A stretch of 64,000 bases of DNA from an archaeon (GTDB lineage Archaea; Nanobdellota; Nanobdellia; Pacearchaeales; GW2011-AR1), in assembly GCA_043810285.1 (NCBI GenBank), contig JBDROH010000022.1, forward strand, positions 8,484 through 72,483, written 5' to 3'. The notes under the pieces are model-generated. The model made no database searches. It was given only the letters and a program-made list of their open reading frames with translations, and was not told the DNA's origin. This document shows, in pieces, positions 932 to 15,602 of the stretch (its first letter is position 1; every line of letters begins with the position of its first letter). Position numbers and translations under genes: made by a program.

Positions 932-1411
932 ATGACCAAACTTTCCCCAGAAAAATTTTTAGCAAAGAAACTAAAAGAGATAAATCAAAAAATAAAAACC
1001 TCTTTCGTTCTAATTCGAAAAGATGTCGACGAAATGCAAACAACAATCAACGCAATGCGAAGATACCTCAAAAACAAAGACGAACAATACAAATACGCAA
1101 AAAAAGAAGACAACAAAATCAGAGATGAATTCCGACAAGAGGTCAACGAGTTCACACAGAAAATTTCCTCCCTAAGAATTGCACTGTCTGAAGTAAGAAC
1201 AATCCAAAAAGAAGTTGTATTAATGAAAGATTTAGCAAAAATTGAGGACAAAATCAAAACCTCCTTCAAAAATGAAATAGAAAACTACAAAGAACAAATC
1301 AAACTATTAAGAACCGAATTTAAAGAAGTAGAAAAAAGAATTACTGCAATAGAAAACGGAGATGTTCTAGAAAAAACGAAAGGTTGGTTTTTCAATAAAA
1401 AGGATAAATGA
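932..1411 (+). CDS. Hypothetical coiled-coil protein, Lys/Glu-rich
   Basis: 159-aa ORF with heptad-like K/E-rich composition and no recognisable catalytic motif. Confidence 0.45.
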   Translation: MTKLSPEKFLAKKLKEINQKIKTSFVLIRKDVDEMQTTINAMRRYLKNKDEQYKYAKKEDNKIRDEFRQEVNEFTQKISSLRIALSEVRTIQKEVVLMKDLAKIEDKIKTSFKNEIENYKEQIKLLRTEFKEVEKRITAIENGDVLEKTKGWFFNKKDK

Positions 1412-1414
1412 GAT

Positions 1415-2431
1415 TTATTTTAACTTTTCTACAGTCCTTTTACCGTCATCTCCAATATAAGCCACACGATTCCTACCATTTGCTTTCGCATAATACATAA
1501 GACCGTCAACTTCCTTAACAATCCAATTCGTAGCACATTGTGCGACAGACATATCGCGAATATTAGAATTATTTTCTACAACATAAGACTTAACAAAATT
1601 TCCAATTATCCCTACTCGTTTTCTAATCTCTTCCCTTGTTAACTCCTCTCTTTGAACAGGGGAATGATTCGTAGAATACCATCCGAAATAATTATTTAAC
1701 ATCCCCTCAAAATTAGGGTTATCATTAACATAATCAGATATTAACTGCTTCCCACTAGCCCCATACAGAAACCAAAGAGGATTTTCCTGATTTACTTCTA
1801 TAACGCCAGAACTAACAGTTACTGGTTTTCTATGTTTATTCCCTCTTCCATCTACAAAATTCACTTCTGTATCTTCAGTATGAGACTTTAATCTATACGC
1901 CACATCCAATGCATCCGCCTTTTTGGTGTTAGGCAACAAAACAAAAAATTCTTCTCCTCCATACCTAAATGCGACATCCGAATCCCGAATACTTTCTGAA
2001 ACAACACCACTTAAGGTTTTAAGAACAACATCTCCAGCATTATGACCATAAGTATCATTAAACGCCTTAAAACGGTCTATATCAAACATCATTACCGAAA
2101 AAGGATTACGAAGATTCCTATAAGTCGAAGCAAGTTGTTTTTTTAATTCAAAGTCTAAACACCTTCTATTAGATAATCCGGTTAGATAGTCTTTTGTTGA
2201 CAAATCCTTTGTCTTTTCATTTGCTTCATGAATAATATCTCTCAAGAATGAAATAGTATCAGAACTACATTTCCAATCCCTATCAAATATATTCTTCCAA
2301 ATTTCAGTACCTACATAGATTAAATCATTAGGATTTCCCAACGAACTAACCTCTTTTTTAATGCTCTCGGAACTAAGACCCTCATAACTAAGTCTTCTAA
2401 CGATTGAGTCCAATCCCTTATAACCGTTCAT
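1415..2431 (-). CDS. GGDEF-domain protein (diguanylate cyclase-like) with an intact GGEEF active-site motif and an insertion of about 75 aa inside the domain
   Basis: The GGDEF start DYLTGLSNRRCLDFEL, the motifs FDIDRFKAFNDTYGHNAGD and RYGGEEFFVLLP, and VTVSSGVIEV followed by ADGLMYYAKANGRNRV are all present. About 95 residues separate the last two motifs where about 20 is typical. Confidence 0.75.
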   Translation of the reverse strand: MNGYKGLDSIVRRLSYEGLSSESIKKEVSSLGNPNDLIYVGTEIWKNIFDRDWKCSSDTISFLRDIIHEANEKTKDLSTKDYLTGLSNRRCLDFELKKQLASTYRNLRNPFSVMMFDIDRFKAFNDTYGHNAGDVVLKTLSGVVSESIRDSDVAFRYGGEEFFVLLPNTKKADALDVAYRLKSHTEDTEVNFVDGRGNKHRKPVTVSSGVIEVNQENPLWFLYGASGKQLISDYVNDNPNFEGMLNNYFGWYSTNHSPVQREELTREEIRKRVGIIGNFVKSYVVENNSNIRDMSVAQCATNWIVKEVDGLMYYAKANGRNRVAYIGDDGKRTVEKLK

Positions 2432-2585
2432 GATAAATTAACTTAAAATTAAGGTTTAAATAATAATGTATACTTTAACCTAATATTTTACAAACCAACA
2501 CTCTCAAATGTAATTACACTATTTCAGTAAAAGACACAACAATACTTAAAAACCATCCTCCCGATTTTCTTCAACAAGGTGCTAT

Positions 2586-4475
2586 ATGTGGTCATTATAC
2601 GAGCGAAAAAATGAAGATTCTAGTGATGGTGTAAACTTATTTGATTACTCTGGTGAAAAGCTCAAACCACTGAAATTCTCAAATGGAAAAACTCAAGAAG
2701 ACGTCGTCAAAGAAGTCCTCGAGACAATCAACGCCGGAAACAAACTAATTTTCATAAAAGGAATATGCGGAACTGGAAAGTCGGCAATTGCCCTAAATTT
2801 AGCAAGACACTTTAAAAAAACATCAATCGTCGTCCCAATAAAATCCCTCCAAGAGCAATACGAAAAAGATTACACTCAAAAAAAATTCATTATGAAAAAA
2901 GATAGTAATCCTTTAAAAATTGCAGTTATAAAAGGAAGAAATAATTTTAGATGTCCTTTTTCCGGAGAACGTTCCGATGACCCAGAACTTCCATGTACAA
3001 TCGAAATTAGAGAGAAAAATACTGAGCAACTTTTAAAATACATTGATATGAATGAAGCAGTAGAAAAAGAAAATTTCTCATCAGCGTCGGATGTCCGAAG
3101 AATGAACATTGCTCCTGCATGTCCTTACTGGGCACCACTAATGCCTTCAGAAATTAATCCAAAAGGGCTAAATGATGTCACCAAGAAAAAATATCAAGCA
3201 ATATGCGGAAAAGAATTTGCATTATTCTGTAGAAAAAAAGGATGTGGATATTACGACCAATACAAATCCTATATCGACGCTGACGTTCTTATTTTTAACA
3301 GTATGAAATATCAGATAGAAAGTTCAATAGGAAGAAAACCAAAAACAGATATAGATATTATAGATGAGTGCGACGAATTTCTTGATAGTTTTGCTAATGA
3401 ACGAAAAATTAATTTAAACAGATTACACTCGGCACTCTCAAATCTCCAACCAAACGACCAAGAAAAACGAACAAAAGTCAAGGAACTAATCAAAGAAATA
3501 AATAATATTTTGTTCAATCCTCCAACAATAGAAATTCAAAAAATAAACTCCTCCTCATTCCTCAACCTAATAGAAACAATTCTCAAAAACCCAAATCTTG
3601 CCGAAGACGAAGAACTCAGTTATTACAATACTGTAGTAGAAATTGCACGAACATTCGAAAATCTTCTAGATGAAACATATATTTCTATAGCTAAAATAGA
3701 AGAAGAAACCAAACAGAAAGGACTTTTTGGAACTAATTTCTCCAACGAGAAAACAGTAATACTAAATCTGGTTTCAATAAACTTAGCACAAAAAATTCAT
3801 GAACTAATTGAACAAAACAATATTCTAGTCATGATGTCTGGAACCCTTCATTCCGAACAAGTTTTAAAAGATATTTTTGGTTTAGAAGAATTTAAAATCA
3901 TCGAAGCTGAAATCGAAAGCCCTGGCATTATAAAAAAACAACGAACAGGTTTAGAAAAAAATTGTAACTTCTCCAACTTCTCAAATAAAACCATTACTAG
4001 AAAAATGTACCTTAAGATATTAGATATGTGTATGGCAAATGCCGAGCAACCAACTTTAGTTCACGTGAGTGCTTTCAAAGACCTCCCCACAGAAGAAGAA
4101 AATGCCGAATACAAATTTGAAAATTTAATCACTCAAGAAAAATTAAAGGAACTCCAATCAAGAGGAAATACTTCAGTAGATGAATTTACATCAGGTGAAG
4201 AAGATGTTCTATTCACCACAAAATGTTCGCGAGGAGTAGATTTTGCTGGAAACAAATGCAATTCTATTGTCATAACAAAATTTCCCTATCCAAATATTCA
4301 AGGACTCTTCTGGAAGATTCTCAAACAAGAACAACCTGAAAAATTCAAGGAGTTCTATATGGACAAAGCACGAAGAGATTTGATTCAAAAAATCGCAAGA
4401 GGGGTTAGATTCAAGGGAGATAAAGTTTCATTATGGAGTCCGGATATTAGAGTAATGAATGCTAACTTAAATTAA
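2586..4475 (+). CDS. Superfamily 2 helicase of the XPD/Rad3/DinG type, compact at 629 aa
   Basis: Walker A (GICGTGKSA), a Walker B/DExD-like motif (IIDECDEF), a Cys-rich insert after GRNNFRCPF consistent with an FeS domain, the Rad3-family VMMSGTL motif, and a C-terminal TKCSRGVDF motif resembling Rad3 motif VI. Confidence 0.55.
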   Translation: MWSLYERKNEDSSDGVNLFDYSGEKLKPLKFSNGKTQEDVVKEVLETINAGNKLIFIKGICGTGKSAIALNLARHFKKTSIVVPIKSLQEQYEKDYTQKKFIMKKDSNPLKIAVIKGRNNFRCPFSGERSDDPELPCTIEIREKNTEQLLKYIDMNEAVEKENFSSASDVRRMNIAPACPYWAPLMPSEINPKGLNDVTKKKYQAICGKEFALFCRKKGCGYYDQYKSYIDADVLIFNSMKYQIESSIGRKPKTDIDIIDECDEFLDSFANERKINLNRLHSALSNLQPNDQEKRTKVKELIKEINNILFNPPTIEIQKINSSSFLNLIETILKNPNLAEDEELSYYNTVVEIARTFENLLDETYISIAKIEEETKQKGLFGTNFSNEKTVILNLVSINLAQKIHELIEQNNILVMMSGTLHSEQVLKDIFGLEEFKIIEAEIESPGIIKKQRTGLEKNCNFSNFSNKTITRKMYLKILDMCMANAEQPTLVHVSAFKDLPTEEENAEYKFENLITQEKLKELQSRGNTSVDEFTSGEEDVLFTTKCSRGVDFAGNKCNSIVITKFPYPNIQGLFWKILKQEQPEKFKEFYMDKARRDLIQKIARGVRFKGDKVSLWSPDIRVMNANLN

Positions 4476-4486
4476 TTTATACCTCC

Positions 4487-4610
4487 AATCACCGACGACC
4501 CTACTCGAGCATATTCAAGTGATATCGTATCGTTTGCTTTATACTAATTCACACTCAGACTTTTTAATGGTTATCGGTCTACTTATAGGTGACAAAAGTT
4601 AGGGAGATAT
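4487..4610. repeat. Copy 1 of a roughly 120 bp conserved intergenic element. It has a CTACTCGAGCAT arm and a TCGGTCTACTT..GGTGAC arm
   Basis: Aligns with 5222-5345 and 11120-11240 and partially with 6670-6800. It lacks the full CCCCAACC core but retains ACCGACGACCCTACTCGAGC. Confidence 0.6.
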
Positions 4611-4614
4611 AAAA

Positions 4615-4761
4615 TTACTTCTGCTTCTTAAATAAAACAATTGTTAAAATAATGAAGAATATACCAGTTAATGAATACCAAATAAAGTTAGTTTCTGGTT
4701 CTGGAAAAAATAACAGAATAAGTAATCCAATAATTAATGAAATTATCCAAAGGTTTTTCAT
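4615..4761 (-). CDS. Small membrane protein, 48 aa
   Basis: MKNLWIISLIIGLLILLFFPEPETNFIWYSLTGIFFIILTIVLFKKQK. An archaeal TATA box TTTAAATA lies about 25 nt upstream on the minus strand. The promoter and first codons are duplicated at 9898-9975. Confidence 0.35.
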   Translation of the reverse strand: MKNLWIISLIIGLLILLFFPEPETNFIWYSLTGIFFIILTIVLFKKQK

Positions 4762-4812
4762 ATTCTAATCAAGGATGAAACTTATTTAAACTAAACGCCC
4801 CCAACCATTTGT
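4738..4812 (-). promoter_or_regulatory. Archaeal promoter module (TATA TTTAAATA, near-leaderless start) plus the 5' codons of the small membrane protein. Copy A of a roughly 75 bp duplicated module
   Basis: Minus-strand reading GGGGGCGTTTAGTTTAAATAAGTTTCATCCTTGATTAGAAT-ATG. A near-identical copy lies at 9898-9975. Confidence 0.55.
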
Positions 4813-4924
4813 TAGATAGTTTTGGTACAAGTGCGTGTAGATTAAATATGGGCACAAAATCCCTTGAGTATTTAACAAATTCTTTTTTAGTTAAATAGAT
4901 ATATCTAATTTTTCTTATAAAGAT

Positions 4925-5193
4925 ATGAAGATTTCAGAAAGATAAAAAAAATTGCGAAGAAGATTAAAACCGAGATTAAAGTATACAAGGGTGTTTTAAA
5001 CGACAAAAGAACTCCAAAATTAGAAAAAATACTTCTCGGAGCTGGAATTGCATATTCTTTAAGTCCTATAGATATTATCCCAGATTTTATACCTATCTTA
5101 GGTTATGTTGATGATATAATACTCGTCCCTTTGTTGATATTTATAGGGTTAAAATTTATTCCAAGGAAAATCATTAAGAAGTATCGTTGGTAA
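4925..5193 (+). pseudogene. DUF1232 (YkvA-like) membrane protein gene with an apparent frameshift in an A8 run. Either a pseudogene, a programmed shift or a sequencing error
   Basis: ATG at 4925 gives MKISER then a stop. The +1 frame after the A-run at 4944-4951 encodes KKIAKKIKTEIKVYKGVLNDKRTPKLEKILLGAGIAYSLSPIDIIPDFIPILGYVDDIILVPLL, which carries the DUF1232 DxIPDxIPxxGyxDD signature. That frame has no ATG. Confidence 0.35.
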
Positions 5194-5204
5194 AATAAAA
5201 TTCC

Positions 5205-5345
5205 ACCCTTGAATGTCACAAAAGTCCCAACCGGCTAAGACCCTACTCGAGCATCCTTACGGAATGTCATGTAGTTTGCTTTATTCTATTTGGTGGCTTT
5301 TCTTTTTAAATCTTGTCGGTCTACTTGTGGGTGACACCTCTTGGG
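5205..5345. repeat. Copy 2 of the conserved intergenic element, including the tRNA-Asp 3'-end core fragment CCCAACCGG
   Basis: CCCAACCGGCTAAGACCCTACTCGAGCATCCTTACGGAATGTCATGTAGTTTGCTTTAT...TTTAAATCTTGTCGGTCTACTTGTGGGTGAC aligns with copies 1, 3 and 4. Confidence 0.6.
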
Positions 5346-5385
5346 GAGAAGATATAAATAAACCTAAATCAAGAGATTATCTGAT

Positions 5386-5569
5386 GAAAATACCTGAACT
5401 TGAAAAAAAATACGGGAAGGAATTAATTGACAAAATTTTGAAGGGTCATTATTTGGATGGCTGTACTATTGCGATAGTTAATGGCGAAGACGATATTCCT
5501 GAAGGCGATATAAGATTGGCAATTAGAGAAATAAATGGGGATGAAATTGGTAACTGGGAATGGGATTAA
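5386..5569 (+). CDS. Small hypothetical protein upstream of fic. The ORF-track start at 5213 overlaps the repeat element, so a downstream Met is preferred
   Basis: MKIPELEKKYGKELIDKILKGHYLDGCTIAIVNGEDDIPEGDIRLAIREINGDEIGNWEWD. Lies on the same strand directly 5' of the Fic gene. Confidence 0.3.
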
Positions 5570-5706
5570 TTCATGCCTAAAAGGTTATATTTTTGTTATA
5601 TTTTCCTGCCTAAAAGGTTACAGTAACAAACTATCCCCTCGATAACACTGATAATATTTCCTGCCCAAATAGTAAGGTTTTTAAATAAAGAAAACCTGTT
5701 ATAATC

Positions 5707-6663
5707 ATGAGTCATATAGAAATTAAAAAAACAAAAAGTAATAATTACGCATCATTTGTAAAGAAGGTAGTTTTTATGGGAGAGTCATGCGTGATTAAGA
5801 AAAGCATGGGCCTGCAGTCTTCTACCCTTAACAAAGAAAAATTCTTATTGGATAATATTGACTTAATAACAAAAGAAGAATTTGATTTTAGAAAAAAATA
5901 TCTAAGCCAAATTATTTCCAAGATTTCTCATAATGAAAAATTACCTGAAAAAATAGAATTAGCTTCGATTAAATTAAATAATCTAATTGATGCCAAGGAT
6001 TGTCAGGAAGTGGTGGATATAGAATTTGCAAAGGAGTTTATTTTTAATTCAAATAATATTGAAGGTTCCAAAATTCCTCCACAGGCGGTTAGGGAAATTA
6101 TCGATAAGGGTGATACGAGATATTCGGATAAAAATGAAATTAAGGAAGTAAAGAATTCAATTGAGGCATTTAATTATTTGAAAAAATCATTTAAGTTTAA
6201 TATCCAGTCTATAAAAAAACTCTATCATGTTTTAACAAAAGATTTGGAAATGCAAAAAGGGGTTTCTTATCCGAGAGGTTTTAAGAAAGTTCAAAATGTT
6301 GTGGGGAATTCTATAACAACTGCTCCAGAAAATGTGGAGTCTGAGTTAATTGGTTTATTAAGGTGGTATAGAGAAAATAAAGGTAAAATTCATCCGTTAA
6401 TTTTGGCCTTTGAATTTCATAAGCGATATGAAGGTATACATCCTTTTTTAGATGGAAATGGGAGAACAGGAAGGCTGATTATGAATAAGATTTTGATGGG
6501 TAAGGGATACCAGCCTATAATCGTCTATAAGGAAAATAAGGAATCGTATTTTAATTCTTTGGCAAAAGTTAATGATGGAATGTCAAAAAAATATTATCAG
6601 TTTATGTTGGAACAAACTAGAAAGAGTTATGATTTTTTAGAAAGTGTTATAAAAAAATATTAA
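5707..6663 (+). CDS. fic: Fic/Doc (Fido) family protein, a putative AMPylating toxin
   Basis: Canonical Fic motif HPFLDGNGRTGRLIMNKIL, matching HPFx[D/E]GNGRxxR. Confidence 0.85.
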   Translation: MSHIEIKKTKSNNYASFVKKVVFMGESCVIKKSMGLQSSTLNKEKFLLDNIDLITKEEFDFRKKYLSQIISKISHNEKLPEKIELASIKLNNLIDAKDCQEVVDIEFAKEFIFNSNNIEGSKIPPQAVREIIDKGDTRYSDKNEIKEVKNSIEAFNYLKKSFKFNIQSIKKLYHVLTKDLEMQKGVSYPRGFKKVQNVVGNSITTAPENVESELIGLLRWYRENKGKIHPLILAFEFHKRYEGIHPFLDGNGRTGRLIMNKILMGKGYQPIIVYKENKESYFNSLAKVNDGMSKKYYQFMLEQTRKSYDFLESVIKKY

Positions 6664-6669
6664 GGATCA

Positions 6670-6800
6670 ATTTACTCCTTGAATGACGGATAAATCCGAA
6701 ACACTACATTCTTGTCGTTTAGTCGTTTTTCCATTGGTGAGTGTGCGATGGAGACGATATTTAAATCTTGTCGACCACTAAGGGGTGACGGAAGTTAAGA
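6670..6800. repeat. Copy 4, degenerate, of the conserved intergenic element
   Basis: Shares CCTTGAATG at its 5' end and TTTAAATCTTGTCGACCACTAAGGGGTGAC at its 3' end with copy 2. Confidence 0.5.
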
Positions 6801-6809
6801 AAAATATAT

Positions 6810-7331
6810 TTATTCTTCCAGTATATTTTCTATTAATGTTAAAAATTCTTTAGCCCTTTCTAAAGAAGTTTGAGCCTTTGATTTTTTAATATTTTCAGTA
6901 GTCTCATATTGAAATGTAGATCTTTTAACTTTTTCAAAACCATATTTTGTCAAATAATTATCACTAACAGATAAAGCTTCATCTTTTCCTATCTCATAAG
7001 CTTTCAAAAGATGATTTTTTATTTTATGTCTGCCTTGCACAATTAAACCCTCATTTACTACTTGATGGACAATTTCATGTTTTGTTTTGTATCCTAGTTT
7101 GTATAAATATGCACAAGCCATATAGAACATGGAATAATAACTACTCACAACCACCCATAGTGACGAAGAATTATTCTTGAATAATAGGTTGGCGACGCTT
7201 AGGCTCTCTCTTGCATTTCTCAAATAGGTCTCATAAATTAATGTTTTAGGCTTGTCTATTTCCGTTATTTTTCCGTCTCTCAAATAATTTTTGAAATTAT
7301 CTTCCGCTTGTTTTATTCTTTTTTCATCCAT
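6810..7331 (-). CDS. HEPN-domain protein, putative toxin of a HEPN-MNT pair
   Basis: Alpha-helical 173-aa protein with an R-x(4-6)-H-like motif (RHKIKNH). Overlaps the upstream MNT gene by 19 nt, the typical arrangement. Confidence 0.55.
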   Translation of the reverse strand: MDEKRIKQAEDNFKNYLRDGKITEIDKPKTLIYETYLRNARESLSVANLLFKNNSSSLWVVVSSYYSMFYMACAYLYKLGYKTKHEIVHQVVNEGLIVQGRHKIKNHLLKAYEIGKDEALSVSDNYLTKYGFEKVKRSTFQYETTENIKKSKAQTSLERAKEFLTLIENILEE

Positions 7332-7909
7332 TCTGAAATTAAATTATAGTAATTCTCTTTCCCATAAAGTATAATGTTGTTTTTAATTATTTCGTTACCA
7401 AGATTATTTCCTTTCTTTTCTATCATTGAGGTAAATTCTTTTGAGGTAAATTCTTGTATTTCTAAGTTCAAAGATAATAGGCTTAGTTTCTCATTTAATA
7501 TTTTGGATTTAGATTCATTATCTAGAATTATGCAGATATCAATATCTGAATTCTTTGTGTTAGTTTTTTTAATATATGAACCAAATGCCAATACAGTTAG
7601 AAATGGGTAGTTTAATTCTTTGATATATTTTCTTATAACTTTTAAATTTAAATTTTTCGAGAAAAACTCTTCAGTTCTTTTTTCTTCTATTGAAAGAGTT
7701 TCTATATTGTTATTTTGATTAAATTCGATAAGATAGGAGTTTCCTTGCTTGCTTTTTAAATATGTTTTAGGATTTATTTTAGAGAGTGCTTGAGAAGTGT
7801 TTTTATAATCTGCTTTCAGTTTTTGAGAAATCTCCATGATAGAATGTGGAGATTCTTTGTTTTCGATTAAAAATTTCAATATCTTTTCTTTTAGGGTATA
7901 TTTTACCAT
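7313..7909 (-). CDS. Minimal nucleotidyltransferase (MNT), putative antitoxin partner of HEPN
   Basis: LAFGSYIKKTNTKNSDIDICIIL matches the GS-x(9-13)-D-x-D polymerase-beta-like nucleotidyltransferase signature. Confidence 0.7.
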   Translation of the reverse strand: MVKYTLKEKILKFLIENKESPHSIMEISQKLKADYKNTSQALSKINPKTYLKSKQGNSYLIEFNQNNNIETLSIEEKRTEEFFSKNLNLKVIRKYIKELNYPFLTVLAFGSYIKKTNTKNSDIDICIILDNESKSKILNEKLSLLSLNLEIQEFTSKEFTSMIEKKGNNLGNEIIKNNIILYGKENYYNLISEWMKKE

Positions 7910-8022
7910 GATATTATGGTAGTATATACCTTATTTAAATCTTGTGTTTTTGTCAAAACCCTCTCAACCGCCTCCTGCCCTTAATATGTCGACTGACTGT
8001 TGGGATTATCTCTTTTTCTTCT

Positions 8023-8177
8023 TAATTAAAAAATAAATCAATGCTCCACCAGCTAAAATCAAAAATATAGTCTAAAATGATGTCAGAATTTTCTTTGGAT
8101 ATATCTGGAATGCCGTTTTTTACAGATTCTTTCCATAAAAGATATCTTTCTTCATGCTGATATGGGTCAACTTTCAT
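8023..8177 (-). pseudogene. Remnant N-terminal fragment of a second tyrosine integrase
   Basis: MKVDPYQHEERYLLWKESVKNGIPDISKENSDIILDYIFDF is similar to the N-terminus of the intact integrase at 12644 (MEKRDPYKHKERYFRWLKENANGIGGISLRNSSLILAYLYDM). It ends after about 50 aa. Confidence 0.4.
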
Positions 8178-8471
8178 TAATTTTAGAAGGATTCGCAAAT
8201 AAAAAGGTCATTGTATAAATGTTGTATTTTAGACATAGTATCCTATTACTTAAGGAGATATAAAAATGTTTAGAAATCGCCCCAACCGCCGTGACTAGAT
8301 GAGTGTGTCTTTGGTAGGTGGATGGAATTTATTACCGTTTATTAAAATCAATTCCAATATCTTCTAAGATTTTAAGGGATTTTATAGTCTTGAAATAATA
8401 AACTTGTGCATCACTTCTCTTTTTAAAATATAAATAAAAACAAAATCCTGACAGGATCATCATAAACGATT

Positions 8472-9875
8472 TTATTTATGCTTTCCAAATATCTCTCTAA
8501 CATAAACGAACAAAACATCCATATTCATAGCCCACCGAAGAATAGTGCCCCTAAAAAACCCATATTTCTTTTCTTTAACAGGCTGAGAATAATCAAAAGT
8601 TTTATACCCAAATCCCCCAAAATATTTCTTAACATAACAATTTAATCCTGCTTCAACACGATATTTATATTTAAAATACTTAGGAAGAGTCTCCCAAACA
8701 ATTCTTCTCATTGCTCTTTCTCCAGAATTCAAAGCAATGAGACGAATCGTTTTTTGCATAAAATTACTCCTTAATCCAATAAACATATTGAAATCACCTC
8801 TTTTAACTGGTTCAATTATCCCTTTAATTATCTCTAAATTTAATCCTATCAGATCAGCATCACAAAAGAAAATAATATCTGCATCAGTTGAAAACACCCC
8901 TCTTTCCATCGATTCCGCCTTTCCAAGATTTTTCTCATTTTTAAAATATCTAACCTTTGGAAATTTTCTTACTATCTCATATGTATTATCCCTTGATCCA
9001 TCGTCAACAACAACAATTTCATCTATGGACTTGGATTTACTAATGACTTTTAGAACACTCCTTATTCTCTTGGACTCATTAAAAGAAGGTATTATTGCAG
9101 CAACCTTATTTTCATCTTTTTTCCCAAAAAGATTATTCTTTTCAATGAAATCTCCTATCACTCCACAGATTTCATCATCGTATTCTGAAAAAAACAAATT
9201 ATGAACTTTTGTATTAAAAATTTTCTGTTGTTTAACAAAAGATTTTACCTTTTTATTTATATCTCTTATAGAAGCATAATGACCAATTGGATCCAAATAT
9301 GAATGAATTGAAAGAATGGGACAATTTATATTTTCAAATTTTTCTCTCAATTTTTGAGCAGCTTGTTTTGAGATAAAAAATCCATTTACATGCATAAAGT
9401 CATAACTAAAAGCATTTTTTCTCTTTTCTTTTTCATTTTCACATCGATTTTTCCCCCAATATTTTTTATACTTTCTTAAAACCCCTATTCCCCACACATT
9501 AAAAGGAAATTTAAAAAGATAAGGTGGACAAACATCAAAGACACCAAGTATTGGATATTCTGAAGAAAAAGTTAATGCGAGCATAGCACCAAAACTAATC
9601 CCTCCAAGGATTATTCTTCTCCCTTTTCTAATGTCTTTTTCTAATTCTCTTTTAATTTGTTTAAAAAAATCTTCATATTCAAGATTATCTAGATCTTTTA
9701 CATTAGTTCCATGGCCACGTAAAAGAATAATTTTCACATTAGCATTAAATTTTTTATTCAAATAAGCTGGTAAATTGTTGAAATCTGTTGGGCTTCCAGT
9801 ATAGCCATGAATAAGAAAGAACTCCCGATTCGAATTAGCCTTCAATTCTATTGTTTTTACTTTTTCTTCAACCAT
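8472..9875 (-). CDS. Fusion protein: N-terminal alpha/beta-hydrolase (esterase/lipase GxSxG) and C-terminal family-2 glycosyltransferase
   Basis: N-terminal HGYTGSPTDF and GGISFGAMLAL (GxSxG). C-terminal AAIIPSFNESKRIRSV...VVVDDGSRDNT (GT2 DxD region). Confidence 0.65.
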   Translation of the reverse strand: MVEEKVKTIELKANSNREFFLIHGYTGSPTDFNNLPAYLNKKFNANVKIILLRGHGTNVKDLDNLEYEDFFKQIKRELEKDIRKGRRIILGGISFGAMLALTFSSEYPILGVFDVCPPYLFKFPFNVWGIGVLRKYKKYWGKNRCENEKEKRKNAFSYDFMHVNGFFISKQAAQKLREKFENINCPILSIHSYLDPIGHYASIRDINKKVKSFVKQQKIFNTKVHNLFFSEYDDEICGVIGDFIEKNNLFGKKDENKVAAIIPSFNESKRIRSVLKVISKSKSIDEIVVVDDGSRDNTYEIVRKFPKVRYFKNEKNLGKAESMERGVFSTDADIIFFCDADLIGLNLEIIKGIIEPVKRGDFNMFIGLRSNFMQKTIRLIALNSGERAMRRIVWETLPKYFKYKYRVEAGLNCYVKKYFGGFGYKTFDYSQPVKEKKYGFFRGTILRWAMNMDVLFVYVREIFGKHK

Positions 9876-9897
9876 TTTTTAGTAATCCAATACTTAA

Positions 9898-9975
9898 TGA
9901 AACTATCCAAAGGTTTTTCATATTCTAATCAAGGATGAAACTTATTTAAACTAAACGCCCCAACCACTGTTTACT
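9898..9975 (-). promoter_or_regulatory. Copy B of the duplicated promoter/leader module. It encodes a 17-aa truncated MKNLWIVSLSIGLLKNG upstream ORF that overlaps the start of the GT2 fusion gene
   Basis: About 70 of 75 nt identical to 4738-4812, including the TTTAAATA box. The TGA of the upstream ORF overlaps ATGGTTGAAG of the downstream gene. It ends in the att-core fragment CGCCCCAACC. Confidence 0.5.
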
Positions 9976-10037
9976 TCTAGTAGTGTTTGTTTACACCAAT
10001 TATATAAGATAAGTAAAATTCTTACTAATAATCAATT

Positions 10038-10361
10038 TTAATGTTGCATTGCAAGAATATTTTCTATTTCTTCTAGAGTATTATTTGTCGTTCTTAAAAG
10101 ATATTTAAATGCTTTAATATATTTTTCTTTCCCAGAAGTTTTAATAGCAACTTTCCTTTCTTCTTCATTATCAAAAGCAGAATTAATATATTCTTCATCT
10201 TTTAATACAATACCAAAATAAATTGGGTTCATTCCAAAAAATGTTCTCCATCTATTGTTTAACATGCATACATCACCAGGCTTACTACCTCTCTTAAATT
10301 TACTAAAATTCTTAATCTCTCTTTGTAGCGCCTCTTTGATAAACTTGTCCTGATTTTTCAT
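10038..10361 (-). CDS. Hypothetical protein, 107 aa, co-oriented immediately downstream of the NYN gene
   Basis: Clean ORF with no recognisable motif. Lies 60 bp downstream of the NYN gene on the same strand. Confidence 0.4.
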   Translation of the reverse strand: MKNQDKFIKEALQREIKNFSKFKRGSKPGDVCMLNNRWRTFFGMNPIYFGIVLKDEEYINSAFDNEEERKVAIKTSGKEKYIKAFKYLLRTTNNTLEEIENILAMQH

Positions 10362-10421
10362 ATTGATAATTATATTTAGTAAAGGATGTCTGAGTTTTTA
10401 TAGTTTTAGAATAATTTGAGA

Positions 10422-10958
10422 TTAGGATAATTTAATTTCTTCAATAAATTTTTCGTCTATTTTTATTGTTTTATAAGCTACTTTCTTTAGATGATAGGAT
10501 ATTGTTTTGCTGTTTCCTATTGCTACGTAGTTTATTTTTTTCGAAAATCTTTCTTGTGCTGCTTTAACTGCTCCTGAAAAATCTCCATCATTTGATATAA
10601 GAAATGCTTCGTCAAATTCGTTTGCTTGTGCGTCTAAAACTAAATCTAGTGCTAGGTTGACATCTGTCGCTTTTTCAACAAAGTATTCTTCTCCATCCTT
10701 TTTCCGTTTTTCTAATCTTCCAAAGATTATTTTTAGATTTTTGATTTCTCTAAATTTATCAAAAAAACTTTGTTGTTTTGCGTACATTTTAGAATTTTGA
10801 GTTTGGTCTACAGGTGCAATGTAATAATTTATTTTTACTAAATCATTTTTATTAGTAAGTTTTTTACAGAATTCTCCCATATCTATTTTACAATTAAATC
10901 TTTTCTTTATCGAAAAATAGAAATTGCTTCCATCAATGTAGACAATAGATTTTTTCAT
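10422..10958 (-). CDS. NYN-domain (PIN-like) predicted RNase
   Basis: N-terminal VYIDGSNFYF and later LISNDGDFSGAV are the two acidic-residue motifs typical of NYN/LabA-like nucleases. Confidence 0.6.
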   Translation of the reverse strand: MKKSIVYIDGSNFYFSIKKRFNCKIDMGEFCKKLTNKNDLVKINYYIAPVDQTQNSKMYAKQQSFFDKFREIKNLKIIFGRLEKRKKDGEEYFVEKATDVNLALDLVLDAQANEFDEAFLISNDGDFSGAVKAAQERFSKKINYVAIGNSKTISYHLKKVAYKTIKIDEKFIEEIKLS

Positions 10959-11119
10959 ATAATTAAAAAAATCATGGGGTCCGTGAAGATCCCATGGAGT
11001 TTATTGGAGTTAGATATAGTTTAATGTTTAAAAATGTTATGGTTGTGTATTTTTGTGTATTTTCTCGTTGGTAAATCTAAAAATTATGCGTTTTGTCGAC
11101 GTTGTTTTTATTTTTTACG

Positions 11120-11240
11120 ACCCGCCCCAACCGTCCACGACCCAAGTCGAGCATCCTTACGGGATGTCTTGTCATTTGCTTTATACTTGTTGATGGATTT
11201 TATTTAAAAATGTTGTCGACGACTTTGGGGTGACGAATTG
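11120..11240. repeat. Copy 3 of the conserved intergenic element, with the best-preserved tRNA-Asp 3'-end core CGCCCCAACCG
   Basis: CCGCCCCAACCGTCCACGACCCAAGTCGAGCATCCTTACGGGATGTCTTGTCATTTGCTTTATAC...TTGTCGACGACTTTGGGGTGAC. Confidence 0.6.
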
Positions 11241-11311
11241 ATTATTTACAATAGAAAGAAGCTTCTATTGGGAATAGAAACATTTATAAAATATAATCTT
11301 CTGAAATAGAC

Positions 11312-12526
11312 ATGATAACAAAGGAAGTTTTAATGAAAGTAATAAAAATACAAAGAGAGTGGATTAATACAATTGATAAGGGGATAATTAGGGAAAATTT
11401 CCATAACATAAAATTAAAAGAATCTTTCGCGTTGGTTATTTCGGGGATTAGAAGGTGTGGTAAAAGTACTCTTTTGAACCAAATTCTGAAAGGGCAGAAA
11501 AATTTTTATTATTTAAATCTTGAAGATCCTCGACTAGAGGGATTTGAGTTAAAAGATTTTAATAAAGTTGATGAAATTTTTCAAGAGTTATATGGTCCTA
11601 ACGGAACTTATTTCTTTGATGAGATTCAAAATATTGAAAAATGGGAGAAATTTATTAGATTTTTAGTAGACAGAAAAAACGAGATAGTAATAACGGGCTC
11701 AAATGCTTCCTTGTTAAGTCAAGAACTTGGGACAAGACTTACAGGAAGACATATCAGTTACGAATTATTCCCATTTTCATACTTAGAGTTTTTAGAGTTC
11801 TTTAAGCAAAAACCAAATGAAAAATCTTATTCAGAATATCTCTATGAAGGGGGTTTTCCAGAATATTTGAGGGAAAAGGATATGACTGTTTTGCATGAAT
11901 TATTAAAAGATGTTTTAATGAGGGATATTGCAAATAGATTCGGAATTAAGAATACGGAAACATTGAGAAAATTGGCTATCTATTTACTGAGTAATGTTGG
12001 AAAAGAATTTTCATACAATTCCCTTAAGAAAATGTTGGAAGTTAAATCTGTCCAGAGTATCATAGACTATGTTTCTTTTTTGGAGAATGCTTATCTGATT
12101 TTTACAATACCTAAATTCAGTTATTCTTATAAAAAACAACAAGTTAATCCCAAAAAAGTTTATTCAATAGATAACGGATTATCCTATGCTAACTCGGTTT
12201 CTTTTTCAAAAGATAAAGGTAAGATGTTAGAGAATAATGTTTTTTTGAATTTAAGAAAAAGGTATAAAGAAATATTCTATTTCCAAAAAGATAAAGAGTG
12301 TGATTTTGTGGTTAAGGACAGAGAAAAAGTCCTCCTCGCAATCCAAGTTTGTTATGAATTTAATGATGAAAATCAAGATAGAGAAATAAATGGATTACTT
12401 GAAGCTTTGAATGAATTAAAGCTTAAGACTGGATTAATTTTGACGTATAATCAAGAAGATGAATTTGAAATCGATGGGAAGAAAATAATTCTTAAGCCAG
12501 TTTGGAAGTGGTTGATGGAAGAGTAA
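11312..12526 (+). CDS. AAA+ ATPase of the archaeal AAA_14/DUF4143 type (COG1373-like)
   Basis: Walker A GIRRCGKSTLLNQIL, Walker B-like YFFDEIQNI, and a family-typical length of about 400 aa. Confidence 0.7.
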   Translation: MITKEVLMKVIKIQREWINTIDKGIIRENFHNIKLKESFALVISGIRRCGKSTLLNQILKGQKNFYYLNLEDPRLEGFELKDFNKVDEIFQELYGPNGTYFFDEIQNIEKWEKFIRFLVDRKNEIVITGSNASLLSQELGTRLTGRHISYELFPFSYLEFLEFFKQKPNEKSYSEYLYEGGFPEYLREKDMTVLHELLKDVLMRDIANRFGIKNTETLRKLAIYLLSNVGKEFSYNSLKKMLEVKSVQSIIDYVSFLENAYLIFTIPKFSYSYKKQQVNPKKVYSIDNGLSYANSVSFSKDKGKMLENNVFLNLRKRYKEIFYFQKDKECDFVVKDREKVLLAIQVCYEFNDENQDREINGLLEALNELKLKTGLILTYNQEDEFEIDGKKIILKPVWKWLMEE

Positions 12527-12643
12527 TCGTTTAATGCCTGGGATGAATTGCAGCAACTTGCCGGAAAACTTCTAAATAAAGATTTCAAAAAACATACCAA
12601 TAAGGTAAGAAAATTAGTTCTTTTTAAAAGTAATTAATATGGT

Positions 12644-13774
12644 ATGGAAAAAAGAGATCCATACAAACATAAAGAAAGATACTTCAGATGGTTAAAAGAA
12701 AATGCAAATGGGATAGGGGGGATTTCTTTAAGAAATTCTTCTTTAATCTTGGCTTATTTGTACGATATGCAAGAAGGATTAAATGTTTCAGTAAAATCAA
12801 AAAAAGGTCCAAGAAGTTATACAAGACTAAACAACATAATCCAAAGAATGGTTTTCTTGGCGAAGAAATTTGAAGAAATTTACAGATTAGAAGATATGTC
12901 TCAAATAGATGAAAACATTCTGCATAATTATTTCAATGGAGTAAAAGATGGGACTATCAGAAGATTTGATGGAGAAATATACAGGGACCCTGCAAATCTG
13001 GTAAAGATTTTCAAAGCTTTTTGGCACTGGTGGCAAAAAGTTAACAGAAAGGAAGGAAATGGAATAAAAGACATTACAATAGACTTAGATGCCACTTGTG
13101 ATAAGCCTAAATGGGTTTATATGACCGAAGAACAAATCGCCAAACTTTGTCAAAAAGCTTCTTTTGACTATAATGTCTTGATAACTTTTCTTTATGACTC
13201 TGGAATAAGGGCCCCAACAGAACTTTTAAACATAAGAATCTCGGACTTTCAAAACGAGTTCAGGGAACTGACTATAAGGGAAGAAGTAAGCAAGACTTTT
13301 GGAAGGAGAATCAAATTAATGTTCTCTTCTGAATTAATAAAAAAATATGTGGACAAAAAAGGGCTTTCAAAAGAAGACTATCTTTTCTCATTAAGTCCTT
13401 ATACAATAAATTCTAATCTTCAAAAACTGGTAAAAAAAGTTTTGGGGACAGAAGTAAGTCCTGCAGGACAAAAATACTCTGAACTCACCATGTATGATTT
13501 CCGACATTGCTCATGTTGTTACTGGCTACCAAAATATAAATCTGAATCAGGTCTAAAATATCGTTTTGGTTGGAAAAAGTCAGAAAGGATCCATTATTAT
13601 TCTGAGATGCTTGGGATGCAAGACACTATTTCTGAAGAAGATTTATTTGAAGATACTGGTGGGATGGTCTTCAAAAGAAAAGTGAATAAGATTTACACAG
13701 ATAATAGGCTACAAGAATCTAGGTTAGACTTTCTTGAGAGAAAGATTCAAGAGTTAGGTAAGAAAGTAACTTGA
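12644..13774 (+). CDS. Tyrosine recombinase/integrase
   Basis: Box I-like LYDSGIRAPTELLNIRISDF and box II-like MYDFRHCSCCYW (H-x-x-R) followed by Tyr residues. The gene ends 140 bp from the 3' end of the tRNA-Asp gene. Confidence 0.7.
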   Translation: MEKRDPYKHKERYFRWLKENANGIGGISLRNSSLILAYLYDMQEGLNVSVKSKKGPRSYTRLNNIIQRMVFLAKKFEEIYRLEDMSQIDENILHNYFNGVKDGTIRRFDGEIYRDPANLVKIFKAFWHWWQKVNRKEGNGIKDITIDLDATCDKPKWVYMTEEQIAKLCQKASFDYNVLITFLYDSGIRAPTELLNIRISDFQNEFRELTIREEVSKTFGRRIKLMFSSELIKKYVDKKGLSKEDYLFSLSPYTINSNLQKLVKKVLGTEVSPAGQKYSELTMYDFRHCSCCYWLPKYKSESGLKYRFGWKKSERIHYYSEMLGMQDTISEEDLFEDTGGMVFKRKVNKIYTDNRLQESRLDFLERKIQELGKKVT

Positions 13775-13913
13775 GTCCTCCAAAAAATACTTCAATGCCC
13801 CGTCAAAAATCTCGACGCTCCGAACGGACAAAGACTTGAGTTCTCAAGAGAAGTAAATGTATTCGTCGTCGACAAAAACTATAAAACTTCAATCCACCGT
13901 CGGTAAAAACCCA

Positions 13914-13985
13914 CGCCCCAACCGGGGATTGAACCCGGATCTCGACCGCGACAGGGTCGTGTACTAACCACTATACTATTGAGGC
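13914..13985 (-). tRNA. tRNA-Asp (GTC)
   Basis: Cloverleaf read by hand. Acceptor GCCTCAA/TTGGGGC, D arm GTAT-AGTGGTTA-GTAC, anticodon stem CGACC/GGTCG with loop CTGTCGC (anticodon GTC), T arm CCGGG-TTCAATC-CCCGG. 72 nt. Confidence 0.85.
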
Positions 13986-14034
13986 TTGTAATTTAATTGA
14001 AGAATTGATTTAAAAGACTTACTATTTTTTCTTT

Positions 14035-14988
14035 GTTGTGCAAGCAAGTGACATATGTCACCCCCTAAAACAATAGCTCAAAATCATTATAAATTTCATC
14101 TGGCGTTTTATTATCCAAGCTCATATGTGGTCTAAAATGATTATAGTTCATTCTCCAGAGCTCAACATCTTCATTGCAAAACTTAAACTCTCTTTTGAAA
14201 GTTTGAAACAATCTCTCAACTTTTCCTTGCGTTGTTGGGCTATGAACTGTTCCTCTAATGTGTTCTATTCCCCTCTTTCTACATCTTCTGTCAAATCTTG
14301 AATGTCTGCTTTTCAAACCATAAGCTGAACCATTATCAGTTAGAATTTGTTTTGGCTTGCCATAAATTTTAATTAACTTATCGATTAAATTTATCACAAT
14401 ATCCGTCGTAACAACGTTAGTTACAGCAAAAGCTAAACTTTTTCTTGAGCAATCATCGACGACAGAAACTACCCACTTATCTTTAATTTTTTGTTGGCTA
14501 TGATCAATCTGCCAAAGAGAATTAGGACGTTTTCTTTGAAAACGAATATATTTTATTCTTTTCTTTTTTCTTTTAGTTGGTTCAGTTAGTTTGTGTTTGT
14601 TTAGAATTTTATTAATAGATGTATGGCTTAAGTTTACAAAGTTTTCAATTTTTTCAGCCCCAAAACCAGTTTTCTCTCTTATAGAAATAATCTTATTTTC
14701 TATCTCTTTAGTTATTTTTCTATGAATCATTTTAGGACGTCTGGACTTATCATTCAAATCCCAATTATCATTTGTATCTAATTCGTGTACCCATCTTTTC
14801 AAAGTTCGATTAGTTATTTCGAATTTATGTTTTACAAAAAGTATTTTTCTACATTGGTTATATGAATGTCCCTCCATTTTTAGTTTAAAAAATATCTTTC
14901 TGATTTCTTCTTTTTTCATAAAAAGAATCAAAAAACACTGCGGAACTAATTTTCGGTGCTAGTGACATATGTCACTGGATTGCACACT
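14035..14988. mobile_element. Insertion sequence of about 950 bp with 18-19 bp imperfect terminal inverted repeats and a palindromic core AGTGACATATGTCAC at both ends
   Basis: Left TGTGCAAGCAAGTGACATATGTCAC (14035-14061) and right AGTGACATATGTCACTGGATTGCACA (14962-14988) flank a single transposase ORF. Confidence 0.75.
14065..14931 (-). CDS. DDE transposase with integrase core (rve) domain and N-terminal HTH, IS481/IS3-like
   Basis: WQIDHSQQKIKDKWVVSVVDDCSRKSLAFAVT....ILTDNGSAYG shows the D..D..E core pattern. An N-terminal helix-turn-helix region is present. Confidence 0.8.
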   Translation of the reverse strand: MILFMKKEEIRKIFFKLKMEGHSYNQCRKILFVKHKFEITNRTLKRWVHELDTNDNWDLNDKSRRPKMIHRKITKEIENKIISIREKTGFGAEKIENFVNLSHTSINKILNKHKLTEPTKRKKKRIKYIRFQRKRPNSLWQIDHSQQKIKDKWVVSVVDDCSRKSLAFAVTNVVTTDIVINLIDKLIKIYGKPKQILTDNGSAYGLKSRHSRFDRRCRKRGIEHIRGTVHSPTTQGKVERLFQTFKREFKFCNEDVELWRMNYNHFRPHMSLDNKTPDEIYNDFELLF

Positions 14989-15208
14989 ATTTTTTCTTTG
15001 TTTTCTTTTTTGTCTTATTTTCTGAAATCTTTGCAACTTCTACTCGGAGTTTTTCAATTTCTTCTAAGAGTGTTGCGTGATTTAGACTAAGGTGTTGTAT
15101 TTTCTCATGAATATCTGAAAAGGCATCGTTAAGCATTAACATATCTTTTTTCACATACCCGAAACTCGCAGAGATATCTTTTTCAATTTGTTTAATTGAT
15201 TTTTCCAT
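14987..15208 (-). CDS. Small coiled-coil protein (hypothetical)
   Basis: 73-aa ORF with heptad pattern and a Lys-rich tail. Weak support. Confidence 0.25.
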   Translation of the reverse strand: MEKSIKQIEKDISASFGYVKKDMLMLNDAFSDIHEKIQHLSLNHATLLEEIEKLRVEVAKISENKTKKKTKKK

Positions 15209-15302
15209 AATATTCCATATATTTTATATTTATAAACTTTTGTAACTTTAAAATTGCGACAAAAAACGGGAATGATTAAAAAGAACTAATCTCTGTAACT
15301 TT

Positions 15303-15578: not shown

Positions 15579-15602
15579 AATGTTATTTTTTGTTCTTATT
15601 TT

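Follow-up and report, generated by a model that had tools for sequence, protein, structure and literature searches.

Introduction

The machinery of cyclic di-GMP (c-di-GMP) is regarded as essentially bacterial (PMC5847659, PMC10086821, bioRxiv 10.1101/2021.11.05.467447, PMC10249747), and RCIX2274 of Methanocella arvoryzae (CAJ37382) is cited as the only accepted archaeal protein with a GGDEF domain (PMC5847659; bioRxiv 10.1101/2021.11.05.467447). Galperin et al. (2018) counted one known archaeal GGDEF and considered those derived from metagenome-assembled genomes (MAGs) to be possible contamination (PMC5847659), Galperin and Chou (2021) took the same view of archaeal HD-GYP proteins (bioRxiv 10.1101/2021.11.05.467447), and Römling (2022) stated that archaeal GGDEFs 'need to be confirmed in archaeal contigs' (PMC10086821). 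Here we analyze a 64-kb stretch of DNA from an archaeal assembly (GCA_043810285.1, contig JBDROH010000022.1), referred to here as the window, which encodes a 338-amino-acid (aa) GGDEF protein with an insertion inside the domain. Our data indicate that its gene is probably a native, vertically inherited diguanylate cyclase gene of a Pacearchaeota (DPANN) archaeon. Among the literature search results that we examined, no paper describes this family of insertion-bearing GGDEFs.

The GGDEF protein and its active site

The gene and the parts of its product are as follows.

1415..2431, minus strand: GGDEF protein gene, a stand-alone diguanylate cyclase candidate of 338 aa (open reading frame (ORF), PF00990, TIGR00254, AlphaFold2 and Foldseek)
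2195..2431, minus strand: N-terminal helical domain, aa 1-79 (AlphaFold2 secondary structure)
1793..2194, minus strand: first part of the GGDEF core, aa 80-213 (Pfam, alignments with WspR and PadC)
1535..1792, minus strand: lineage-specific insertion, a helical module, aa ~214-299 (MAFFT, profile search and AlphaFold2)
1415..1534, minus strand: second part of the GGDEF core, aa 300-338, with the last helix and the final strands (second stretch of the phmmer alignment)

The 338-aa protein is a true GGDEF-fold protein. A profile alignment, which a preliminary description of this DNA had proposed as the way to define the insertion, placed positions 3-135 of the 161 in PF00990 at aa 80-215 (E 2.7e-37, 128.5 bits, cut-off 23.8), with the last 26 profile positions unmatched, and TIGR00254 also matched (E 7.5e-41, 139.6 bits, threshold 37.4). 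The domain had been called catalytically intact in that description, and all the motifs are indeed present: DYLTGLSNRR (81-90), RYGGEEF (156-162), and VDGLMYYAKANGRNRV (308-323). The first part of the core carries D117/D119, N125, D134, R149-x-x-D152, R156-YGGEEF-162, and R180, while D309, Y313, K316, G319, and R320 lie in the last helix, within the second part. When the protein was compared with the Protein Data Bank (PDB) using phmmer, residues 301-325 aligned to the ADxALYxAKxxGRN helix of PadC and WspR, with YYAK316ANGR320N, which follows the insertion, opposite YxAKxxGRN. The putative inhibitory site (I-site), R149-D-S-D152, aligned to the RxxD of WspR and lies five residues upstream of the GGDEF hairpin; an RxxD I-site is found in many, not all, GGDEF members. 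By motif alignment to PleD, we take D117/D119 to correspond to the metal site of D327 and N125/D134 to the guanine-reading N335/D344. Similarly, K316/R320 are presumably the phosphate-binding counterparts of PleD K442/R446, and R180 presumably the secondary I-site Arg, the counterpart of R390. The residue roles in PleD are the standard assignments (Chan 2004, Wassmann 2007).

The AlphaFold2 model of the 338-aa protein has a predicted local distance difference test score (pLDDT) of 93, a predicted template modeling score (pTM) of 0.84, and a canonical GGDEF core. In a Foldseek search of the PDB, the top 50 matches were all diguanylate cyclases, with E-values down to 9e-14. Since the template modeling score (TM-score) reached 0.90 per target while it did not exceed 0.49 per query, the core is canonical and the extra parts are found in no solved structure. 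Judging from its intact residues, the enzyme looks active, and it would most likely be an active, product-inhibited diguanylate cyclase of DPANN archaea.

A fixed chromosomal slot

The genes on either side of the GGDEF gene, and the predicted promoter elements between the GGDEF and helicase genes, are as follows; related loci are referred to by L numbers and homologous proteins by P numbers.

932..1411, plus strand: gene for a 159-aa coiled-coil protein, convergent with the GGDEF gene across a 3-nt gap
2454..2463, minus strand: TATA-like box (TTATTTAAAC) of the GGDEF gene, 23-32 nt upstream of the ATG start
2546..2552, plus strand: TATA-like box (TTAAAAA) of the helicase gene, with AAGGTG at 2576-2581; a putative function in both cases
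2586..4475, plus strand: gene for a 629-aa Rad3/XPD/DinG-like superfamily 2 (SF2) helicase (Helicase_C_2, ResIII), divergent from the GGDEF gene

A clade-specific GGDEF family holds one fixed chromosomal slot between the coiled-coil and helicase genes. In the window, the GGDEF and helicase genes are divergent and 154 bp apart, and both ORFs (1415..2431, minus strand, 338 aa; 2586..4475, plus strand, 629 aa) are as the preliminary description gave them. The trio of coiled-coil (plus), GGDEF (minus), and helicase (plus) genes recurs in L003/4/5, L006/7, L010, and L011, where the GGDEF is 59-62% identical to the 338-aa protein, and also in L016/17, where it is 39% identical. Coiled-coil copies that are 56-84% identical adjoin the GGDEF gene in L003, L006, L008, L010, L011, and L016; the 159-aa protein itself matched no Pfam family. 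The same slot is found in L001, L003-7, L010, L011, and L016-17. At least 10 independent assemblies of related Pacearchaeota share it. Outer flanks are shared with relatives too: one has acetyltransferase, radical SAM, and methyltransferase genes, and the other has S10, SNase, PAP2, and peptidase U32 genes. Since identity between the window and L003/L006 is 60% for the GGDEF compared to 88% for the helicase and 77-82% for the coiled-coil protein, the GGDEF evolves faster than its neighbors.

We surveyed the slot by searching the upstream regions of 43 metagenomic helicase loci and of two further loci from helicase homologues, and found GGDEFs of some kind in about a quarter of the helicase loci sampled. 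Fifteen loci have an empty slot, in which the coiled-coil gene lies directly upstream of the helicase gene on the same strand with no GGDEF between them (L031, with an 82-bp gap, is an example); the coiled-coil gene is the ancestral upstream partner of the helicase gene. Seven metagenomic loci, as well as the Pacearchaeota MAG GCA_023133415.1 (L032/33), carry an insertion-free GGDEF that occupies this slot in the orientation seen in the window. These short GGDEFs are 204-265 aa long and 34-40% identical to the 338-aa protein over the core; RYGGEEF occurs in three of them, RYRGDEL in one type, and GGEEL together with an in-frame TAA in another type. The L032 type belongs to its own small family of nine clusters, after which matches drop to bacterial sequences. 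The TAA is in L044/L076 (GGDEF at ~118-816 and ~4180-4878), where it replaces a conserved Glu codon identically in two samples, while the RYRGDEL form of L043/L075, with its degenerate active site, is 204 aa long and has a truncated N-terminus.

Family members also occur without the helicase in L008/9, L012/13, and L014/15, and the latter two pairs lack the coiled-coil gene as well. In the marine metagenome loci L008 (2486-3556) and L009 (2104-3174), a 356-aa RelA_SpoT protein (PF04607, E 1.4e-17) follows the GGDEF/coiled-coil pair; this P0007 lineage has a second synthetase of the nucleotide-alarmone type beside the cyclase, and the helicase is not adjacent there. A fragment of a Hel308/Ski2-like helicase, with an intein-like segment apparent by eye, adjoins the distant insertion-bearing GGDEF P0127 (L014 2989-4818). 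The 159-aa coiled-coil protein (932-1411, plus strand) also has in common with a 73-aa ORF elsewhere in the window (14987-15208, minus strand) the N-terminal motif I-x-x-S-F-x-x-V/I-K/R-K-D-x-x-x-L/M, which suggests a small coiled-coil family in this genome.

Archaeal host and probable native status

Among the proteins encoded in the window are RNA polymerase subunits of the Rpb1 and Rpb2 types (with Rpb2 domains 4 and 5), aEF-1alpha with GTP-eEF1A_C, aEF-2, ribosomal proteins S12 and S7, and an archaeal CCA-adding enzyme. Since the RNA polymerase, both elongation factors, and the CCA-adding enzyme are archaeal, the contig is archaeal, as the preliminary description had taken it to be. An identical protein has been deposited as 'MAG: GGDEF domain-containing protein [archaeon]' on the 84.7-kb contig JAZDEA010000012.1, and the closest relatives of the 338-aa protein are labelled Candidatus Pacearchaeota, a clade of Nanobdellati/DPANN. 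We found that the composition of the GGDEF gene is typical of its surroundings: its GC content is 0.346 (genome mean 0.335±0.039; window 33.5%), its GC content at third codon positions (GC3) is 0.26 (genome mean 0.275±0.054), and it ranks 20th of 44 ORFs in codon usage. The compositional test for recent transfer of the GGDEF gene was negative.

The motif ATTATTaTAtAAAC stands at the same distance upstream of the GGDEF gene in L001, L003, L006, L008, L010, L011, and L016, and the TATA-like box is kept in L008 although the gene upstream differs there. We infer that the box functions as a predicted promoter element of the GGDEF gene, implying a transcript of the archaeal type that would be leaderless or near-leaderless. 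For the helicase gene, all six intergenic regions that were aligned retain a block covering its TATA-like box (GGTTTTTAAGGATTGTT on the opposite strand). No shared operator was seen in the divergent intergenic region, in which the two separate TATA-like boxes alone are conserved.

Horizontal acquisition had been called plausible for the gene. Recent acquisition together with an adjacent mobile island (4480..15600) does not fit these data: the slot is shared by at least 10 assemblies, the island is specific to this genome, the composition is native, and the TATA-like box is conserved. The gene had also been placed at the edge of the island, which holds only loosely, since the helicase gene lies between them and the GGDEF gene belongs to the syntenic backbone.

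The insertion and the N-terminal domain

The insertion sits between the strand VTVSSGVIEV and the last GGDEF helix. Each diguanylate cyclase that phmmer matched in the PDB aligned to the 338-aa protein as two pieces; in the case of WspR, residues 70-210 correspond to 20-159 of the chain and residues 304-325 to 174-195, such that 94 residues of the query stand for about 15-19. When 42 other GGDEF proteins were aligned with it in MAFFT, all 42 had gaps opposite residues ~220-299. The split phmmer matches and the gaps in the MAFFT alignment indicate that the insertion is real and measures ~79-80 aa, close to the ~75 aa of the preliminary description.

The AlphaFold2 model places insertion helices at 218-222, 225-235, 241-255, and 266-286, and these are retained when the insertion is modelled alone (pLDDT 77). 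The insertion has no Pfam match, and its fold has no match in the PDB (best E 3.2). We searched 1.84 billion representative proteins with an insertion-only HMMER profile and obtained eight matches, seven of which, all GGDEFs, are 336-376 aa long and share the position of the insertion. The eighth, P0123, is a tandem-repeat protein of 1152 aa and looks spurious, as its score comes from adding up 12 weak repeats. The possibility that the insertion is a duplicate of the N-terminal domain was also rejected (hhalign probability 0.2%). All 13 family members compared share E212, Y223, G227, and Y248 in the insertion, and P218, W220, L222, and F279 are almost invariant. From fold topology, we argue that the start of the insertion, at the C-terminal end of VTVSSGVIE, points from the metal site toward the I-site face of the domain, because this strand is antiparallel to strand 1 in the ferredoxin-like palm, with the sheet order 4-1-3-2. 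On the same topological grounds we favor a role in product inhibition, dimer geometry, or partner binding over a role in chemistry.

The N-terminal domain contains helices at 2-16, 21-29, and 34-50 in the AlphaFold2 model, followed by a stalk helix (57-79) that leads into the GGDEF domain. It matched no Pfam family, even at E<=10, and is collinear with the N-termini of the insertion-free archaeal GGDEFs found at the same locus.

Relatives of the GGDEF protein

A search of a set of 5.8 billion proteins returned seven full-length relatives (55-62% identity, ~334-340 aa), all of which contain the insertion, after which matches jump to bacterial GGDEFs that align over the core only. The nearest bacterial proteins are ~33-49% identical over the core and have neither the N-terminal domain nor the insertion. 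We computed conservation over 13 family members (31-62% identity) and found that D117, D119, N125, D134, R149, R156, G159, E161, F162, D309, Y313, and K316 are invariant, that D152 and G158 are at least 90% conserved, that R180 is likewise either invariant or at least 90% conserved, and that position 320 is R or K. There are exceptions within the family: one member (P0122) has SGDEF, and one lacks the I-site Asp.

One of the matches to the insertion profile clusters with MAG07934.1, from a Tara Oceans MAG labelled 'Candidatus Woesearchaeota', the gene for which shares an 82-kb contig with genes for exosome, proteasome, RNase P Rpp14, SBDS, and RpoK. Members of the small family with the insertion come from Pacearchaeota and Woesearchaeota. 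A scan of genome contigs with the 338-aa protein returned only bacterial GGDEFs, through the generic motif, and was uninformative. In a neighbor-joining tree of the domain (155 columns), the kind of check that the preliminary description had called for, all insertion forms and three short archaeal forms fall together with no bacterial sequence among them; since bootstrap support is 21% and 6%, the tree does not settle the origin or the monophyly of the archaeal GGDEFs. An old bacterial origin of the GGDEF domain is likely.

The neighboring helicase

The helicase matches PF13307 (Helicase_C_2, E 1.2e-13) and ResIII (E 3.9e-8), and it has weak matches to the NCBIfam YoaA/DinG models and a match to the PADLOC typeIV_DinG model (E 1.1e-43). 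It has more than 2000 homologues, the top 120 of which are 68-89% identical and 622-669 aa long, and they are annotated as 'Rad3-related DNA helicase' in Pacearchaeota and Nanoarchaeota. The protein had been described as compact, but 622-635 aa is the standard length of the family. Like XPD, Rad3, and DinG, it combines Helicase_C_2 and DinG-type profile matches with a Walker A motif (GxCGTGKS) and DECD, both invariant. Four Cys between motifs I and II (C123, C137, C179, and C220), a possible counterpart of the Fe-S cluster domain, are invariant in 16 homologues. Unlike the Fe-S helicases, it gave no match to DEAD_2 (PF06733), even at E<=10, and its best PDB sequence match, DinG, is marginal (E 2.8e-4). 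Since no Cas genes were found near the helicase, it is not a component of a type IV CRISPR system; it is a core, highly conserved gene of the lineage. The helicase mostly occurs without a GGDEF neighbor, and we therefore regard the adjacency of the two genes as positional, not functional.

The mobile island and other features of the window

Beyond the helicase gene lies the mobile island, with the following features.

4480..15600, no strand: genome-specific mobile/defense island, outside the GGDEF unit (Pfam, PADLOC)
5707-6663: Fic (PADLOC SoFic/PDC-S04)
6810-7331: HEPN, followed by a nucleotidyltransferase (NTase) at 7313-7909
8472-9875: glycosyltransferase family 2 (GT2)/hydrolase fusion
10422-10958: NYN nuclease (PADLOC HEC-09)
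11312-12526: AAA_14-DUF4143 ATPase (PADLOC PDC-S01, E 6e-113)
12644-13774: integrase-like ORF, which adjoins tRNA-Asp (13914-13985)
14065-14931: rve-type insertion sequence (IS) (Pfam)

The island contains DUF1232, Fic, HEPN and NTase, GT2-hydrolase, NYN, and AAA_14-DUF4143 genes, the integrase-like ORF, tRNA-Asp, and the rve-type IS, and PADLOC matches among its genes are PDC-S04/SoFic, PDC-M05A, HEC-09, and PDC-S01. Neither of the syntenic loci L003 and L006 has these ~11 kb (4.5-15.6 kb). Relative to related genomes, the peptidase U32-PAP2-SNase-S10 block beyond the island is inverted. An 81-nt direct repeat (4721-4801 and 9881-9961, 98% identity) brackets ~5 kb of the island, and a 93-nt element is present in three copies (4484-4576, 5226-5318, and 11126-11218; 66-81% identity), two of which overlap the starts of small ORFs; these repeats may mark the boundaries of elements or represent a small repeated element, either mobile or RNA. 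At 14021-15002, the rve-type IS is flanked by a direct repeat of 17 nt, exact in both copies (ACTATTTTTTCTTTGTT at 14021 and 14986), and by palindromic 18-mers that are nearly identical (GCAAGTGACATATGTCAC at 14044 and 14958); these look like a target-site duplication and terminal repeats.

At the left end of the window, a 1545-aa protein with no Pfam match starts at 676 on the minus strand and runs off the end (1-676; L001 11756-16393), and the corresponding region of L006 encodes a 2041-aa LTD-domain protein; both may be large surface proteins. In most archaea, the largest subunit of RNA polymerase is split into A' and A''. Here, one 1144-aa ORF (54449-57883, minus strand) holds all five Rpb1 domains and would be a fused, rather short RpoA, while RpoB is a single ORF of 1104 aa. 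Three consecutive genes at 27250-30444 (minus strand) appear to encode an [FeFe]-hydrogenase/NuoG-like protein (555 aa), a NuoF-like protein (371 aa), and a NuoE-like 2Fe-2S thioredoxin-like ferredoxin. The Pfam check, made on the third gene alone, gave PF01257 (E 1.1e-39). Together, the three genes would form a module of the HydABC type in a small DPANN genome.

Proposed mechanism and alternative explanations

We propose that the GGDEF gene entered the gap between the coiled-coil and helicase genes in an ancestor of the Pacearchaeota group. It would then have been inherited vertically, with loss or decay in many lines, and one branch would have gained the 80-aa module, with the catalytic residues fixed thereafter. 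The neighbor-joining tree is compatible with this history, with weak bootstrap support. Two copies of the 338-aa protein would dimerize through the N-terminal helical domain and the stalk helix, each GGDEF half-site binding one GTP-Mg2+. D117, D119, and E160 would hold the metal, N125 and D134 would read guanine, K316 and R320 would bind phosphates, and the dimer would condense two GTP into c-di-GMP. The product, bound at the RxxD I-site (R149 and D152, plus R180), would shut the enzyme off. The 80-aa helical module would be a lineage-specific regulatory or docking surface. It may influence dimerization or product inhibition, or it may be a binding site for a partner or ligand. The GGDEF gene has the helicase and the island as neighbors, not as partners.

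Several observations weigh against a native, active cyclase. A 2023 review of archaeal second messengers states that c-di-GMP has been detected in no archaeon (PMC10249747). The GGDEF is dispensable in many relatives, as seen from the empty slots, the nonsense codon of L044/L076, and the RYRGDEL of L043/L075. Neither EAL or HD-GYP domains nor PilZ-type Pfam matches were found among the scanned ORFs of the 84.7-kb contig, about one-tenth of the genome (a few window ORFs at 26-35 kb were left out), or in the flanks of related loci, and an Rfam scan of the window at gathering thresholds returned tRNAs only and no c-di-GMP riboswitch. The position of the insertion relative to the active site (A-site) and the I-site is argued from fold topology. 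Finally, all genomes compared are MAGs or metagenome contigs.

One alternative is an artefact, in which mis-assembly or mis-binning brought a bacterial gene into an archaeal MAG; this is the default suspicion for archaeal GGDEF and HD-GYP ORFs from MAGs (PMC5847659; bioRxiv 10.1101/2021.11.05.467447). We consider it almost certainly wrong, as the gene has archaeal genes on both sides within an 84.7-kb contig and has native composition, the arrangement recurs in independent assemblies from NCBI, ENA, JGI, and Logan, and the nearest bacterial proteins are only ~33-49% identical over the core and have neither the N-terminal domain nor the insertion. It is highly improbable that the protein is the second-messenger synthase of an anti-virus defense system acquired with the adjacent island. 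A defense role had been raised in the preliminary description, and the PADLOC matches of the island (Fic, HEPN/NTase, NYN, and AAA_14-DUF4143), the typeIV_DinG match of the helicase, and the faster evolution of the GGDEF (60% identity; helicase 88%, coiled-coil protein 82%) would fit it. Yet the GGDEF has no PADLOC match, lies outside the island, and keeps its synteny in genomes where the island is missing; it has no co-oriented or co-conserved effector gene; the helicase, with its more than 2000 homologues and no Cas neighbors, is a core gene; and the composition is native, with distant family members among housekeeping genes. Could the GGDEF instead work with the helicase and the coiled-coil protein, for instance in signaling of DNA damage or replication stress? 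The trio is kept down to a GGDEF identity of 39% (L016), and about a quarter of the sampled helicase loci have some GGDEF in the slot. However, the coiled-coil and helicase genes are adjacent and co-oriented without a GGDEF in 15 loci, the GGDEF gene runs on the opposite strand and has a TATA-like box to itself, the members in L008/9, L012/13, and L014/15 have no helicase beside them, and the genomes compared are close relatives in which synteny alone explains the linkage. We rejected a functional link between the GGDEF and the helicase as the leading explanation, since the helicase is a core gene usually found without a GGDEF neighbor, and consider such a partnership very improbable.

The remaining alternatives concern what the domain does. 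A non-catalytic GGDEF that serves as a sensor or scaffold for GTP or c-di-GMP, with the insertion as its output surface, would account for the degenerate relatives in the slot (RYRGDEL in L043/L075, GGEEL with a stop in L044/L076), for SGDEF in P0122, and for the lack of a phosphodiesterase or receptor seen nearby, and many bacterial GGDEF proteins are receptors. We nevertheless regard this as unlikely: the metal, guanine, and phosphate residues are invariant and GG(D/E)EF is kept at 31-62% identity, which would be unexpected if catalysis were dispensable, and a pure receptor needs a source of c-di-GMP, of which no other is known here. It is quite improbable that the enzyme makes another product, such as 3',3'-cyclic GMP-AMP (3',3'-cGAMP), c-di-AMP, or linear pppGpG, in an active site reshaped by the insertion. 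The insertion does precede the helix that carries K316 and R320, and Hypr GGDEFs show that the fold can change specificity, according to the part of a review that cites Hallberg 2016 (PMC10249747); on the other side, N125 is invariant, D134 is an invariant Asp at the position of PleD D344, and the intact RxxD I-site argues for c-di-GMP as the ligand.

Our data therefore leave a native, vertically inherited diguanylate cyclase as the probable explanation. A bolder proposal is that a DPANN lineage (Pacearchaeota and Woesearchaeota) runs genuine c-di-GMP signaling, with an archaeally inherited and remodelled cyclase and with receptors unrelated to PilZ, EAL, and HD-GYP, possibly controlling attachment to host cells; the cyclase would have received a new N-terminal domain and then the new 80-aa regulatory module. 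We put this forward tentatively, at somewhat less than an even chance; if true, it would give the domain Archaea its first native c-di-GMP system. For one lineage, the locus gives the confirmation of a GGDEF on an archaeal contig, by its setting among informational genes, its predicted promoter, its composition, and its fixed slot, and at the sequence level it is credible that the 338-aa protein represents a known enzyme family in an unexpected domain of life. The GGDEF of this slot has diversified in place by loss, decay, and the gain of a new module. The 338-aa protein is a concrete, small candidate for c-di-GMP synthesis, the forms with and without the insertion are a natural pair for studying the function of the insertion, and the family is an entry point to archaeal c-di-GMP receptors in very small genomes.

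Comparison with known systems

Hypr enzymes have Ser at the position of PleD D344. The window protein resembles these GGDEFs (the GacA-type cGAMP synthases) in its fold and RxxD site, and differs from them in the invariant Asp of its family at that position (D134), which predicts specificity for GTP/GTP. Compared to CBASS, Pycsar, and type III CRISPR-like systems, the GGDEF has no match to a defense profile in PADLOC and no linked effector. RCIX2274 of Methanocella arvoryzae is unlike it by description, being a REC-PAS-PocR-GGDEF-HD-GYP fusion that occurs once, in a methanogen, whereas the window GGDEF is a small single-output protein of a diversified DPANN family.

The bacterial diguanylate cyclases differ from the 338-aa protein in their host, in having no counterpart to its ~80-aa N-terminal domain, which matches no known sensor family, and in lacking its ~80-aa insertion, which is absent from the 42 aligned GGDEFs and from solved structures; no partner EAL, HD-GYP, or PilZ was seen for it in the scanned contig and flanks. 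In other respects the protein is like them. With PleD, WspR, DgcB, DgcZ, and PadC it shares the fold (TM-score per target 0.8-0.9), the GGEEF hairpin, and the metal, guanine, and phosphate residues; with bacterial diguanylate cyclases it also shares the RxxD inhibitory site and the secondary Arg (R180), and with WspR, DgcB, and PadC the helix leading into the GGDEF domain. The insertion-free Pacearchaeota GGDEFs (263 aa in GCA_023133415.1, L032/L033; P0249-P0257) have a canonical ~13-aa loop in place of the insertion, and some are degenerate or interrupted by a nonsense codon. They have in common with the 338-aa protein the chromosomal slot, the orientation, and a collinear N-terminus, and most of them carry RYGGEEF and RxxD.

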